Part shown: in pieces, positions 2,374-6,806 of the stretch
Layout: each line of letters starts with the position of its first letter
Numbering within the stretch: position 1 is the stretch's first letter
DNA from: a virus
Virus genome (UHGV): UHGV-1367038
Direction: 5' to 3' (one strand)
DNA: 52,981 bases
Position numbers and translations under genes: made by a program
Notes under the pieces: model-generated
What the model was told of the DNA's origin: nothing
Database searches by the model: none
Seen by the model: only the letters and a program-made list of their open reading frames with translations

Positions 2374-4149
2374 ATGATTTACACAACAGGCACGATAGCC
2401 GTTAGCGGAAAAACAGTTACCGGAACGGGGACTGAATTCAACGCCGCATTATCTCTGATCAGAGTGGGTTGCACTCTTATTGCCATTAGTAATCCGGTGC
2501 AGATTTTCTCAATCACAGAGGTAAAAAGCGCGACAAGTTTGTCAGTAACTCCGGCAGCAAGCCCGGCAATTCCGGCTGGAACTAAATTTAGCATCCTGCT
2601 TTCAGATTCGATCTCTGTGGATGGTCTTGCTCAGGATGTTGCAGAAACACTGCGTTACTATCAGGGCAAGGAATCAGAAATAGCTGACGCCGTTGAATTT
2701 TTTAGCGACAACAAAGATGTGATTTCAGCCTCAAAATTAGCATCAGAATCAGCTACCACTGCAACCAATGCGGCAACAACAGCGACAACCGCCGCCAATT
2801 CAGCAAAGACATACAGAGACGAGGCCCACGAATACGCCAATCAGACGGCGCAGCCTTACGCGTATGTTTTGCAGCCGCTGCCGGACGTATGGATACCGTT
2901 TAATGATTCACTTGATATGCTCACTGGCTACGGCCCTGGCACTAAAAAAGTAACCATTGATGGTGAAGAAAAAACAATATCATCAGATAAGGTTGTTTCT
3001 TTCTCACGCGCAAGCACTGCGACCTATATCAATAAATCCGGTGTACTCACCACTGCTGATATTGATGAGCCGCGTTTCGAACGCGATGGATTATTAATCG
3101 AAGGCACACGCACAAATTACCTTACCAATTCTAATACGCCGACGTCGTGGAATGCTAACACAGGCGTCTTAGAATTAACTGAATCAGGGACGGATAGTTA
3201 CGGCTTTAATTATGGAACATTTACATGCACAGCAGATGCGGCATCAACAGCGACGTTAATTTCGACAGGCACATCAAGAGTAATAGCTACCGCATCCGGC
3301 GAATCAGTTACTATTTCCGGGCGCTTTAAGGGTACTGGCGTCCGCGCACGGGCGCGTATCTCAAAACTTAATGAAGATGGATCAGGTAATACATTCATTG
3401 CTGACGCGCTTTTGGATCTTGATACAAAAGTTTTAACGTACGCCGCTAATTATCTATCTGCTTACTTCGTTGATGAAGGAAACGGATGGCTTTTCTTTTC
3501 CACCACGTATACAGCAACCGAAGATATTGACGTCTACGCACGCTTTGAATTATCACCAAAAACCGGGGAAACATTAGCAATAGGCGACAGTATCACCATG
3601 ACCACGCCGCAGTATGAGTCTGGTTCTTGCGCATCATCGTTTATTGTATCAGGTGACAATCCAACCACACGAGCAAGCGACCTGGTAAGCATACCGACTA
3701 AGAATAACTTATTTAAGCCACCATTCAGTTTTTTACTTGAATTACATAAGGAATGGACAACAGCGCCAAACGCAGCACCTAGAGTATTTGATATTGCAAA
3801 CGCAAGCACAGGACAATCTATTATAGCTGCCATTAACAGAGGTAGCAGTAAATTTTACGTTTCCTTGTCTAACAGTTCTGGTGATTACATCAATTCTGCC
3901 GCTGATTCCGTATTGCCAAGTAAAGCCATTGTTGGTGCGGTAGCTAAAGGTGATGATACTTTTCACGCGATCATGGATGGTGTGGCCGTTGCAGATGCAA
4001 CATGTTCTTACGGTGGAGTAACTCAAGGCAAAAACATCAGATTCGGCGGTCAGGTAGCAGACGGAGCGCGCCACTTGTTCGGACATATAAGAAATTTTCG
4101 TATCTGGCACAAAGCATTAACTGATTCTCAATTAAGCGAAATTGTTTAA
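2374..4149 (+). CDS. Side tail fiber protein with C-terminal lectin/LamG-like domain
   Basis: 591 aa; GGAG RBS; N-terminal MIYTTGTIAVSGKTVTGTGTEF typical of enterobacterial phage tail fibers; Ala/Thr-rich shaft; position after J. Confidence 0.6.
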   Translation: MIYTTGTIAVSGKTVTGTGTEFNAALSLIRVGCTLIAISNPVQIFSITEVKSATSLSVTPAASPAIPAGTKFSILLSDSISVDGLAQDVAETLRYYQGKESEIADAVEFFSDNKDVISASKLASESATTATNAATTATTAANSAKTYRDEAHEYANQTAQPYAYVLQPLPDVWIPFNDSLDMLTGYGPGTKKVTIDGEEKTISSDKVVSFSRASTATYINKSGVLTTADIDEPRFERDGLLIEGTRTNYLTNSNTPTSWNANTGVLELTESGTDSYGFNYGTFTCTADAASTATLISTGTSRVIATASGESVTISGRFKGTGVRARARISKLNEDGSGNTFIADALLDLDTKVLTYAANYLSAYFVDEGNGWLFFSTTYTATEDIDVYARFELSPKTGETLAIGDSITMTTPQYESGSCASSFIVSGDNPTTRASDLVSIPTKNNLFKPPFSFLLELHKEWTTAPNAAPRVFDIANASTGQSIIAAINRGSSKFYVSLSNSSGDYINSAADSVLPSKAIVGAVAKGDDTFHAIMDGVAVADATCSYGGVTQGKNIRFGGQVADGARHLFGHIRNFRIWHKALTDSQLSEIV

Positions 4150-4159
4150 GGTGGTTAGC

Positions 4160-4426
4160 ATGAAAGACGTTAGCTTGCAATTTACTGATAAACAGCAATA
4201 CAACGACATTGTGATTAACAGCGGCTGGCTGGACGAAAATCAGCAAACCGTGTTTATTGATGATATTGGTTTTGTTCTTGTATTCGATGATCCAGAAAGC
4301 GACACGCCTGTACTGATTGAGAAAAAAGGCTATTACGTCAACATGCGCATAACTGGTGACGATGTTGATTTGTCGCCGCTGGAAAAATTCATCATTCCAG
4401 ATCCCGGCGTCCGCGCATGGGCTTAA
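4160..4426 (+). CDS. Hypothetical protein downstream of tail fiber
   Basis: ATG with AAGGTGG RBS; 88 aa; the listed ORF start at 4142 is a TTG. Confidence 0.5.
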   Translation: MKDVSLQFTDKQQYNDIVINSGWLDENQQTVFIDDIGFVLVFDDPESDTPVLIEKKGYYVNMRITGDDVDLSPLEKFIIPDPGVRAWA

Positions 4427-4470
4427 TGGTGCGATAGTAACAGCATGGTGATGTTGAAGACATCGCCGCG

Positions 4471-4500
4471 AAACGAGGCTAACGCCTCGTTTCTTTTTGT
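4471..4500 (+). terminator. Rho-independent terminator
   Basis: AAACGAGGC-taac-GCCTCGTTT then CTTTTTGT. Confidence 0.7.
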
Positions 4501-4519
4501 GTACCAAATAGTGACCAAA
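4499..4519. repeat. Arm-type direct repeat copy 1 (GTGTACCAAATAGTGACCAAA), candidate integrase arm site in attP
   Basis: 19/21 identical to copy at 4740..4760; flanks int. Confidence 0.45.
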
Positions 4520-4702
4520 TATCAAAAATCAAAAGCAAAAATAACGTAATACACTGTTTTATAAATGATTATTCGTTGCGCTAACCATTCCAGACAGGAC
4601 CAGCGCACTATGTTTAAAGGTGTTTAACTCCGTTCAATCTCTCCACTAAAATTACTTAAAAATCATCCGGTTGTAACCAAAATCAAGCGTCACGTTTCTA
4701 AT

Positions 4703-4731
4703 TCCGTACAATACTGTTAATATCCGTACAA
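4703..4731. repeat. Two direct copies of TCCGTACAA spaced 20 bp, inside attP-like region
   Basis: Exact 9-bp repeats at 4703..4711 and 4723..4731. Confidence 0.35.
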
Positions 4732-4739
4732 CAAAAACT

Positions 4740-4760
4740 GTGTACCAAAACGTGACCAAA
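4740..4760. repeat. Arm-type direct repeat copy 2 (GTGTACCAAAACGTGACCAAA)
   Basis: Immediately upstream of int start. Confidence 0.45.
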
Positions 4761-4774
4761 AATGGGGGTGCAGC

Positions 4775-5989
4775 ATGCTTACGGATACCAGGTTAAGGAC
4801 TATTGCCAACAAGCCATATGACGGCCCAGGCGAGATAGCTGATCGTGATGGCCTGTCAGCCAGGATAAGCCCAAAAGGGAAAATTACCTTTCAGTACCGT
4901 TACAGATTCAACGGTAAGCCAGTGCGAATGAAGATCGGCGAGTACGGGAAAATGAGTCTGAAAGACGCCCGCTACGCGGTGGCTGAATACAGGGAGTTGC
5001 TTACGAAAGGGAAGAATCCGGCACTGTGCGTAAAGCAGGCCATAGCCTTTGAGCAGGGCAAGCGATCTATATCCGACGTAGTGGAAGACTACCTATCCCT
5101 GCCGAACGTCATTAAGCTGGTGGCGTATAAAGAAGTAAAAAGCGCATTGATGCGCCACGTGGTCAACAAGTACGGCGACTACATAGCTGACGACGTAACG
5201 ACAAAACAGTGGATGGATATATTTGGCGAGATCACGAAGGCGGGGCACGCCGTTACGGCGGGTTTGATATTAAAGCGAATGAAAATCATCGTTAACAGCG
5301 CAATCAGGCGCGGGATAATGACTAACACAGCGATAAACAATATCCGTGTCGCTGACGTTGGCGAGCATTATGCGGTGGGTGAACGTTATTTATCATGCGA
5401 GGAGATAGGTCACTTCTGGCGCACTGTAGACAGTTCGCAGATCTATCCGCAGAACAAAATAGCCTTAAAGCTATTATTGCTAACAGGGTGTAGGGTTGGT
5501 GAATTGCAGAAAATGAGAAGGGAACACCTCGACCTGGATAACGGTGTGTGGACCGTTCCGGCGGCGGTGGCGAAGACAAGAAGTGAAATCAGGCGGGGAT
5601 TATCTGACTTGTCGATAAAAATGCTCAGGGAGGTTTTAACCTCCCATGAGTATGATTATGTATTCCCGCCAGTGATTAACGGCGGCAACAGGCCAGTAAA
5701 CGTATCAGTGATAAAAGTAGCTGCAATATTCGTGCGTAAAAGGATGGGCGGTAAATCATGGTCCTGTCACGACCTCCGCAGGACGTGCCGGACACACCTT
5801 TCAGCTATAGGTGTTCCGGTACATATTGCAGAAAAGATCTTAGGCCATTCATTAAGGGGAATACTGGCGGTGTACGACAAATATGATTATCTTGATGAAC
5901 AAAAGGAGGCACTAAATAAGTTTGCTGATTATGTGTTATCTTTGGCTGACGTTAAACCAATCCGATCAAAGAACTGCATTACGTCCTGA
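4775..5989 (+). CDS. int: Tyrosine integrase (P4-like, N-terminal arm-binding domain)
   Basis: 404 aa; N-terminal DUF4102-like arm-binding pattern; C-terminal HDLRRT...HSLRG...Y catalytic motifs; GGGGG RBS. Confidence 0.9.
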   Translation: MLTDTRLRTIANKPYDGPGEIADRDGLSARISPKGKITFQYRYRFNGKPVRMKIGEYGKMSLKDARYAVAEYRELLTKGKNPALCVKQAIAFEQGKRSISDVVEDYLSLPNVIKLVAYKEVKSALMRHVVNKYGDYIADDVTTKQWMDIFGEITKAGHAVTAGLILKRMKIIVNSAIRRGIMTNTAINNIRVADVGEHYAVGERYLSCEEIGHFWRTVDSSQIYPQNKIALKLLLLTGCRVGELQKMRREHLDLDNGVWTVPAAVAKTRSEIRRGLSDLSIKMLREVLTSHEYDYVFPPVINGGNRPVNVSVIKVAAIFVRKRMGGKSWSCHDLRRTCRTHLSAIGVPVHIAEKILGHSLRGILAVYDKYDYLDEQKEALNKFADYVLSLADVKPIRSKNCITS

Positions 5990-6159
5990 TAGCGGTACAT
6001 AACGCCACGCCCGGTCCCAAGTACGTCAACCGGGTCGGGGAACGGAGTTCCGTTCCGTTCCCATTTTTTACGCCATAAGTAAAACGTTCCCCTGCTAATT
6101 CCCCCAAGCATCCGGCAGATGGCAGGGCGACTAAGAAGGATTGTCCCGGTTTTATCCAT
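5929..6159 (-). CDS. AlpA-family HTH regulator / putative excisionase
   Basis: 76 aa; AlpA-like HTH (LLSRPAICRMLGGISRGTFYLWRKK); 3' end overlaps int 3' end by 61 nt. Confidence 0.65.
   Translation of the reverse strand: MDKTGTILLSRPAICRMLGGISRGTFYLWRKKWERNGTPFPDPVDVLGTGRGVMYRYQDVMQFFDRIGLTSAKDNT
6038..6070 (+). terminator. Terminator-like hairpin downstream of int, embedded in the AlpA-like coding region
   Basis: GGAACGG-agtt-CCGTTCC followed by ATTTTTTA. Confidence 0.4.
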
Positions 6160-6806
6160 TATTTATCCCCCGTGTATTCAACGTGTCCGATACATCCGTC
6201 TATAATAGCTTGCGCCATGTTGCGATAATCACGCGAATAATCATTATCACGATTGAAATTTATTTCTCCTGCTGCGTCTTCACCAATAACCTTAGTAGCC
6301 AGTGCAAACGCAATTTGCGCCAGTGCTTTTTCTTTCGGATCTATCCAGCGGCGATACCTAAAACGGTTCCATCTTGCTGTTTCTTCACATTTTCCAGTCC
6401 TTCTAACAAATATCCCTATTTCATCGCCAGTAAAAATATATTTGGCTACGCAGTATACAGGCGCAAAGTCACCTGGGTAAAATTCGAGCCATACATCTAA
6501 CGGCGGTCTTTCCCCTGGCTGCCATTCCTCGACTTTTGGTTTATCACAATCATGGCGCTCATCTTCGATTAACTCGTCAATGATTTCACTTTCTTTATTC
6601 ATGCCATCATCATCAATGTTTTTATATTCTTCAAAAACCCATGAAGCCGCCATTACTGAATAAGTGCCGCCAGTATCAGCGCGAACGCCCAAAAGGAAAG
6701 ATGATCCATATTGGTATTCGCTGCGGTATGTAGCAACCTCAAAAGAAGGGTAAAAGTCCGGATCTACACGATGTCGAATTATGCCAATTGCTTTAAGTTT
6801 ATTCAT
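6159..6806 (-). CDS. Hypothetical protein
   Basis: 215 aa ORF; GAGGGT RBS; stop overlaps the AlpA-like start. Confidence 0.6.
   Translation of the reverse strand: MNKLKAIGIIRHRVDPDFYPSFEVATYRSEYQYGSSFLLGVRADTGGTYSVMAASWVFEEYKNIDDDGMNKESEIIDELIEDERHDCDKPKVEEWQPGERPPLDVWLEFYPGDFAPVYCVAKYIFTGDEIGIFVRRTGKCEETARWNRFRYRRWIDPKEKALAQIAFALATKVIGEDAAGEINFNRDNDYSRDYRNMAQAIIDGCIGHVEYTGDK

Follow-up and report, generated by a model that had tools for sequence, protein, structure and literature searches.

The stretch of phage DNA analysed here (52,981 bp, in the following called the window) carries, directly upstream of an integrase gene, a non-coding region with several direct repeats (4427–4774), which raises the question of whether this region is the phage attachment site (attP), where within it strand exchange takes place, and which of the repeats serve the integrase. 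The region is bordered by the stop codon of ORF 4142–4426 (94 aa, late operon) and by the int ATG at 4775. A first-pass annotation, made from the letters alone, had proposed an attP-like region next to a P4-like integrase, and all of the repeats that it listed (4499–4519, 4740–4760, 4673–4682, 4703–4711 and 4723–4731) were found to be present.

4775–5989, plus strand: tyrosine integrase (Int), 404 aa, with PF13356 at residues 2–84 and PF00589 at residues 207–367

The N-terminal arm-binding domain (PF13356, E 1e-19) also matched PDB 3JTZ, the N-domain of a CP4-like integrase (E 3e-8), and the catalytic domain (PF00589) was recognized with an E value of 1e-20. The protein has the same domain architecture as the P4 integrase (NC_001609.1) and aligns with it over the full length (BLASTP E 2e-14, 23% identity, residues 13–387), so that the P4-like assignment was upheld. 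Full-length homology was also found to IntS of KplE1 (E 7e-20).

The window phage is a temperate E. coli phage of the mEpimmI (mEp021/mEpimmI) group. Its int region matched mEp021, mEp515 and mEp554 at about 83% DNA identity (in mEp021, int is 83% identical as DNA and the integrase 89% as protein), and the late terminator together with the first repeat matched mEp044, mEp010 and mEp013 at about 90%. Members of this group are Nus-dependent, non-lambdoid temperate coliphages with four integrase types, which insert in the 5' region of ydaM (dgcM; types Ia and Ib), at the 3' end of abgT (type II) or at the start of mppA (type III), and the insertion site of mEp021 in ydaM was verified by PCR (PMC11893012). 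The integrase motifs TGCR..EL, HDLRRT, LGH and VYD.YDY are conserved in all four types. The published report gives short att motifs and integrase types only, and the terms 'arm-type', 'excisionase', 'direct repeat' and 'attP' are absent from its text (PMC11893012). Insertion locus and core motif were thus already published for the group; the predicted arm sites, the candidate excisionase and its putative boxes described below are new details of an ordinary P4-style site.

Core, crossover and host target

Parts of the query were contained in 35 complete E. coli genomes. The int-side junction begins at window position 4589, adjoining dgcM, in nine lysogens, and the tail-side junction stops at position 4600 in 12 others (21 lysogens overall). 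For the lysogen of E. coli N25 both junctions were defined, and these were aligned with the window and with the empty site of K-12. The four-way alignment identified the following element:

4589–4600, strand not applicable: common core TCCAGACAGGAC, 12 bp, identical in attP, both prophage junctions and the K-12 attB

The flanks of the core are swapped in this alignment as site-specific recombination predicts, and the identity of the core in attP, both junctions and attB places strand exchange inside it. Lysogen junctions and empty site together confirm the region as attP, and the crossover lies inside, rather than outside, the interval (4520–4700) in which the core had been predicted.

In K-12, attB corresponds to nt 41–52 of the dgcM (ydaM) coding sequence (codons 14–18). 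The first-pass annotation had expected a core that matches a tRNA 3' end, as is usual for P4-family integrases, and this expectation failed. No tRNA or tmRNA gene was found in the window by ARAGORN, no Rfam match was obtained in 4000–6500 at E values up to 1, and attB lies within the dgcM coding sequence; a tRNA or tmRNA as the target was rejected on these grounds. The 20-bp core of P4 matches the end of a tRNA gene, leuX, and tRNA 3' ends are the habit of its family, whereas the window has a 12-bp core inside a protein-coding gene.

Window and mEp021 belong to the same phage group and have in common the target (5' region of ydaM/dgcM) and the kind of core motif, but their sequences are unrelated over the 100 bp following the core on the right, and mEp021 shares only 9 bp (TCCAGACAG) with attB versus 12 bp in the window. 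The lysogens related to the window (M1/5, FAH, MS 21-1, PAR, KKa019 and Ecol_244) are strains listed as integrase type Ia in PMC11893012. That report is inconsistent on the type of mEp021 (Ia or Ib) and states that the Ib motif carries three extra base pairs; in the present comparison the subtype sharing 12 bp with attB is that of the window (the strains in column Ia of its Table 2), and mEp021 is the one with 9 bp. In a search for core-type inverted repeats, attB showed CCAG-N6-CTGG around the core, attP showed CCAG...CCAG in direct order, and mEp021 showed nothing comparable, so that no core-type sites emerged from the sequence. It was also found that CATTCCAGA occurs twice, at 4393–4401 (inside ORF 4142–4426) and at 4586–4594 (across the left edge of the core), which is probably due to chance but could represent a pseudo-core.

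The gene dgcM encodes the diguanylate cyclase driving the expression of curli/csgD. Once the phage is integrated, the body of this gene faces the int-proximal arm, which contributes an in-frame TAG four codons upstream, with no start codon after the TAG. It follows that dgcM loses its promoter and its first 13–17 codons. In-frame repair of the gene by the phage arm is ruled out by the same TAG and the lack of a start codon, and lysogeny by the window subtype truncates dgcM without repair. In the RefSeq/PGAP annotation of the N25 lysogen (L001, 1820–3001) the truncated dgcM is called a complete CDS of 393 aa starting at ATC; this codon is native codon 18, directly at the att junction, and the call looks like an annotation artefact.

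A type III relative, the prophage of E. coli O157:H7 LSU61 (tail-side junction, L047, approximately 1560–1660), inserts in the signal-peptide region of mppA. Here the int-distal arm gives mppA a new ATG and a signal-peptide-like 5' end (MNKIMIYILFLPLCIISLSYA...) in frame, and mppA is annotated as intact; the mppA-type relative thus supplies a replacement 5' end where the window subtype does not.

Tandem repeat pairs on both arms of attP

Outside the core there are two copies of a 21-bp unit, GTGTACCAAANNGTGACCAAA, which occurs as GTGTACCAAATAGTGACCAAA at 4499–4519 and as GTGTACCAAAACGTGACCAAA at 4740–4760. The features of the two arms are:

4470–4498, plus strand: intrinsic terminator of the late (tail) operon, with a 10-bp stem, a 4-nt loop (stem-loop 4470–4493) and a T-run

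4499–4519, plus strand: int-distal tandem pair, predicted arm-type sites (GTGTACCAAA at 4499–4508 and GTGACCAAA at 4511–4519, 12 bp start to start)

4740–4760, plus strand: int-proximal tandem pair, predicted arm-type sites (GTGTACCAAA at 4740–4749 and GTGACCAAA at 4752–4760)

4673–4681, plus strand: GTAACCAAA, possible fifth, weak arm-type site (uncertain)

With up to three mismatches allowed, the 21-bp pattern matched only these two places on both strands of the 52,981 bp, and it was matched in none of 100 dinucleotide-preserving shuffles, so that no chance occurrence would be expected; GTGTACCAAA with up to one mismatch had one further match in the window. The terminator marks the outer edge of the int-distal arm, its T-run stopping directly at the first repeat. 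The distal pair, on the tail side, is separated from the core by 70 bp, and the proximal pair lies 140 bp away on the int side, ending 14 nt (about 15 bp) upstream of the int ATG. Both arms of attP therefore carry a repeated motif that is unrelated to the core.

The window was compared with reconstructed attPs of mEp021 (dgcM) and mEp044 (abgT), with that of the LSU61 prophage (mppA), and with complete attPs from a pattern scan of IMG/VR, all informative relatives belonging to one E. coli phage group. In the phage collection, integrase identity dropped from about 50% (type II-like) straight to about 35% (Stx phages, mEp234 and others), and a scan of genome contigs for distant integrase relatives gave two loci only, at 31–34% identity; the evolutionary depth of the comparison is limited by this step down to integrases only about 35% identical.

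In every attP compared, a tandem pair (12 bp start to start) follows directly after the late terminator, which lies immediately 5' of the distal pair in all relatives, and a second pair on the same strand ends 3–16 nt before the int ATG. Both positions are kept in mEp021, in mEp044 and in 30-odd IMG/VR contigs. The distal pair is kept in place in type Ib (with one mismatch), type II and type III (as GTGCACCATTAT-GTGTACCATAT), and the distance from it to the core is 70–72 bp in types I and II (in type II, with core AAAAGATAAG in abgT, it is 72 bp, compared with 70 bp in the window). The proximal pair is kept in types Ib, II and III despite unrelated flanks. Between types, the 230–240 bp separating the pairs and the DNA around the proximal pair are unrelated, and types I and II do not differ in the pair itself. 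In type III (LSU61) the pairs are GTGCACCATTAT-GTGTACCATAT and GTGTACCATATT-GTGCGCCAAAT, with the same change of CCAAA to CCATA in both arms.

The integrases vary in a corresponding manner. Across the types, identity is 62–68% in the N-domain, 33–44% in the central domain and 46–56% in the catalytic domain, and a conserved N-domain with a diverged central domain is the pattern predicted for integrases that have a common arm specificity and different core specificities. The integrases of phages lambda and HK022 have the same arm-site specificity and different core specificities, and the shared arms and different cores of types I, II and III parallel this case.

The layout also resembles that of P4, in whose record the features annotated as 'attP arm sequence repeat' flank the core on either side as tandem pairs of directly adjoining 12-bp units, all on the int strand. 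The proximal pair of P4 is located 16 bp from the int ATG (15 bp in the window) and its distal pair 54 bp from the core (70 bp in the window), the distal pair being nearer to the core in both. The P4 repeat sequence (TTGGGGGCATAA) is unrelated, and P4 carries additional copies in inverted orientation, at the ATG and within int, none of which were seen in the window.

Both the comparative tests and the match to the P4 layout support the earlier suggestion that the 21-bp pairs behave as arm-type sites, as far as sequence comparison can indicate this. Some features call for caution: conservation of the distal pair could be due to linkage to the adjoining conserved terminator, identity of the two pairs and their concerted change in type III could reflect gene conversion, and the half-sites differ by a 1-nt indel (GTGTACCAAA versus GTGACCAAA), a difference not usually seen within a single recognition motif.

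In two type II contigs of IMG/VR, both from one metagenome (L021, approximately 3134–3200 in terminator orientation, and L034, approximately 522–590), the late terminator is followed by a single 21-bp pair and then the int ATG, and about 231 bp including the core are missing. The gap arose either by deletion between the identical direct repeats or by collapse in the assembly, and the two contigs are not independent, since their sequences agree completely over −500 to +1013 relative to the junction. Recombination (or collapse) between copies would also be consistent with 21-bp repeats that have no binding function and are conserved as joints from, or for, homologous exchange of int-att cassettes among mEpimmI phages, and the distal copy is located exactly at the border between the conserved late region with its terminator and the variable att-int module. 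The proximal copy, however, lies inside the variable module and is conserved between unrelated flanks in types I, II and III, type III has altered both arms alike, and the N-terminal arm-binding domain of Int needs arm sites, for which no other repeat is present on both arms. A function as joints only is thus considered highly improbable, and the pairs are treated below as predicted arm-type sites.

The related GTAACCAAAA at 4673–4682, which had been listed with these repeats, is present, and its standing as an arm site is uncertain. It is kept as AACCAAAA (with T/C variation) among window-type attPs only, and was absent at the same position in the mEp021 subtype. GTRACCAAA had three matches compared with 1.09 expected, a number reached by 11 of 100 shuffles, and GTAACCAAA alone was not significant.

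Internal repeats, putative int promoter and candidate excisionase

A second family of repeats lies between the core and the proximal pair. These repeats and other features discussed in this section are:

4629–4637, plus strand: TCCGTTCAA, core-proximal copy with one mismatch to TCCGTACAA, candidate excisionase (recombination directionality factor, RDF) box

4703–4711 and 4723–4731, plus strand: two exact TCCGTACAA copies, candidate RDF boxes, 20 bp apart with a degenerate 10-bp unit (ACTGTTAATA) between them

4547–4559, minus strand: weak IHF-like element AAACAGTGTATTA, with two mismatches to WATCAANNNNTTR and an A/T-rich tract beside it (low confidence)

5929–6159, minus strand: 76-aa winged-helix protein, candidate excisionase (RDF), overlapping the int 3' end convergently by 61 bp

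The first-pass annotation had grouped the TCCGTACAA copies with the arm-type repeats; they are more likely to be excisionase boxes or promoter elements. As an exact 9-mer pair they are near chance level, another exact 9-mer pair being present in the same 600 bp, and TCCGTACAA with up to one mismatch had 10 matches in the window against 11.3 expected. Their TCCG element, in contrast to this chance level, was in excess. On the plus strand of 4601–4739 it occurs four times versus 0.29 expected, a count reached in none of 5000 shuffles, and on the int strand of the proximal arm it occurs four times in P4 (0.41 expected) and three times in KplE1 (0.6 expected) and is likewise enriched in mEp021, all of these being tests chosen post hoc. 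The excess is common to P4 (L051, 3966–4077), the KplE1 attL (L050, 885–1045) and the dgcM-type mEpimmI phages, and TCCG may be a common recognition element of AlpA/Vis/TorI-like excisionases.

Counted from the start of the core, TCCGTTCAA lies at +40 and the TCCGTACAA copies at +114 and +134. In mEp021, GCGTTCAGA is found at a similar offset to TCCGTTCAA, and TCCGTTCGA and TCCGTTCAG are found at the identical offsets of +114 and +134. Type II has 2+3 tandem 10-bp units (ATCGTGTCAC) in place of the TCCGTACAA family, and type III has GCGTAAAC-like units between core and proximal pair, so that each integrase type has its own strand-specific repeat family at this place.

In the attL of KplE1, the boxes of the excisionase TorI (GTTCG, GATCG and GTCCG) were footprinted; they form one group of two and one of three, located between core and intS promoter (PMC2951348). 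The 2+3 repeat blocks of type II have the same pattern, and the KplE1 arm sequence contains TCCGTAC and TCCGTAG.

The 76-aa protein is encoded at the other end of int. It matched HTH_23 of Pfam, its AlphaFold model (pLDDT 82) has a strand-helix-helix-wing-helix topology, and pairwise BLASTP with Vis of P4 gave an E value of 0.004 over the helix-turn-helix. By its model it would have an AlpA/Vis-like, excisionase-type fold, and it is regarded as a candidate excisionase. Between the two dgcM subtypes its sequence identity is 93%, as against 47% with type II and 57% with type III; the protein diverges by integrase type and thus varies together with the internal repeats. The convergent overlap of int (plus) and the 76-aa gene (minus) at 5929–5989 has the same layout in mEp021, mEp044 and LSU61, and early-leftward transcripts that cross the candidate excisionase gene would continue into int in antisense orientation. 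Directly upstream of this gene, a 215-aa ORF (6159–6806, minus strand) has no Pfam or PHROG match and is conserved beside int in mEp021, mEp044, N25 and LSU61.

The core and the int ATG are 174 bp apart, on the same strand, and in the lysogen the upstream neighbour of int is the divergent, truncated dgcM. As int is transcribed away from the core with only this gap before it, its promoter is expected in the int-proximal arm. The sigma-70 scan gave a single weak match (4624–4652), no better than in shuffles, and TCCGTTCAA sits in its spacer. Each type examined has a -10-like hexamer at 16–22 nt on the 5' side of the proximal pair (TAATAT at 4718–4723 in the window, TACTAT in type II, TATATT in type III); these hexamers were read by eye and are below the thresholds of the promoter scan. 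The TCCGTACAA copies overlap TAATAT. If TAATAT is the promoter, the candidate excisionase boxes and the arm pair would bracket the int promoter and leader, which predicts negative control of the KplE1/P4 style.

Alternatively, the repeats could be promoter or activator elements of int, or chance repeats kept by general conservation of 4694–4774. They overlap -35-like as well as -10-like hexamers, the exact pair is near the chance level, and the window and the mEp021 type are highly similar throughout 4694–4774, with the consequence that the identical offsets may reflect shared ancestry only. Against this stand the strand-specific TCCG excess, which is also seen in the independent arms of P4 and KplE1, and the different repeat families of types II and III at the same place, which vary with the winged-helix protein. 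Nor does a TCCGTACAA pair occur elsewhere in the genome, as the regulon of a CII-type activator would have, and a CII-type activator site was judged unlikely for this reason. For this repeat family alone, a promoter or chance origin is possible, if somewhat unlikely, and the TCCGTACAA-family repeats are interpreted with moderate confidence as putative excisionase boxes overlapping the predicted int promoter.

A further alternative reverses the two roles: the 21-bp pairs would be operators of a regulator other than Int (for example the 76-aa protein or a phage repressor) that controls int and late read-through, and the TCCGTWCAA-type repeats would be the true arm sites. The proximal pair, between the likely promoter and the ATG, is in a typical operator position, GTAC..A.A is common to TCCGTACAA and GTGTACCAAA, and each integrase type has its own internal repeat family. 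The TCCGTWCAA-type repeats are however confined to one arm, whereas arm-type sites are expected on both, as annotated in P4. The 21-bp pairs are on both arms and track the conserved N-domain of Int rather than the winged-helix protein (47–57% between types), and their tandem 12-bp register and distance from the ATG match the annotated P4 arm repeats. Furthermore, in motif, block pattern and position the internal repeats are similar to the TorI boxes, which were defined by experiment. Such an exchange of roles is accordingly improbable.

Proposed working of the attP and related modules

These results suggest that 4499–4760 is, with good probability, a functional attP of an mEpimmI-group coliphage that works like the P4 and KplE1 recombination modules, the features beyond the core being predictions from sequence. 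The attP belongs to the heterobivalent tyrosine-integrase class (lambda/P4), with arm binding predicted. Int would bind two kinds of site, its conserved N-domain recognizing the two same-strand tandem pairs, which make up four arm-type sites, and its central domain (the most diverged) and catalytic domain contacting the core. Following the lambda/P4 paradigm, four Int protomers would place their C-terminal domains on the two core half-sites of attP and of attB and their N-domains on the four arm sites, and the tetramer, bridging arm and core sites on DNA bent by host factors, would form the intasome.

The int-proximal arm would also carry the int promoter and leader, so that by occupying the proximal pair, 14 nt from the ATG, Int would act as a repressor of int. 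The TCCGTWCAA boxes (4629, 4703 and 4723), which are strand-specific, are probably sites for the AlpA/Vis-like 76-aa protein, which would direct excision and shut off int: on the boxes in the int-side junction it would reshape the arm, and this binding, combined with that of Int to the proximal pair, would limit int expression.

No consensus-grade IHF site was found in the region, where WATCAANNNNTTR matched only with one to two mismatches and these matches are not conserved between subtypes; A/T-rich tracts are present. Type II has a related ATTCAATGTGTTA (one mismatch) at the place matching the IHF-like element.

Among known systems, P4 also shares TCCG repeats in the proximal arm and an excisionase of the AlpA/Vis type (a candidate in the window). 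The KplE1/HK620 IntS-TorI system (KplE1 = CPS-53) has the same arrangement of int, which is transcribed away from the core with its promoter (predicted in the window) inside attL, and excisionase boxes (candidates in the window) in two blocks between core and promoter, arm sites (likewise predicted in the window) between the -10 box and the ATG, and int and excisionase genes that are not co-transcribed are features of both. In KplE1, where the arm sites located between the -10 box and the ATG are those of IntS, intS is repressed by IntS as well as by TorI (PMC2951348). Given its KplE1-like layout, int of the window phage would be expected to be under repression by both Int and the excisionase. 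KplE1 differs in its target (the tRNA gene argW, unlike dgcM) and in its arm motif, a TAAA-containing site.

Lambda and HK022 have the same general mechanism, in which the N-domain occupies arm sites, the core-binding and catalytic domains act on a short overlap of identical sequence, and accessory proteins bend the DNA. The N-domain of lambda Int is, however, of a different family, its five arm sites are arranged 2+3, Xis binds on the int-distal arm, int and xis share a transcript, and lambda has well-defined IHF sites, which were not found in the window.

For a prevalent group of gut coliphages, of which only a short insertion motif had been described, the analysis provides the full anatomy of attP: the core, four predicted arm sites, and candidate excisionase boxes with a candidate gene. 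This matters mainly for annotation, and the current understanding of site-specific recombination is unchanged. The shared arm sites and swapped core specificities would form a natural series for studying or re-engineering the target choice of integrases.

A more far-reaching interpretation is that the N-domain of Int and the four arm sites are a fixed scaffold on which central domain, core, excisionase and boxes are swapped, giving the targets mppA, abgT and dgcM within about 15 kb of the E. coli chromosome, and that the identical 21-bp repeats occasionally delete the core, as in L021 and L034, to leave integration-defective variants. This combined proposal is regarded as unlikely in its entirety. 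If the scaffold reading is true, co-resident Int types share arm sites and could interfere with, or assist, the formation of each other's intasomes.
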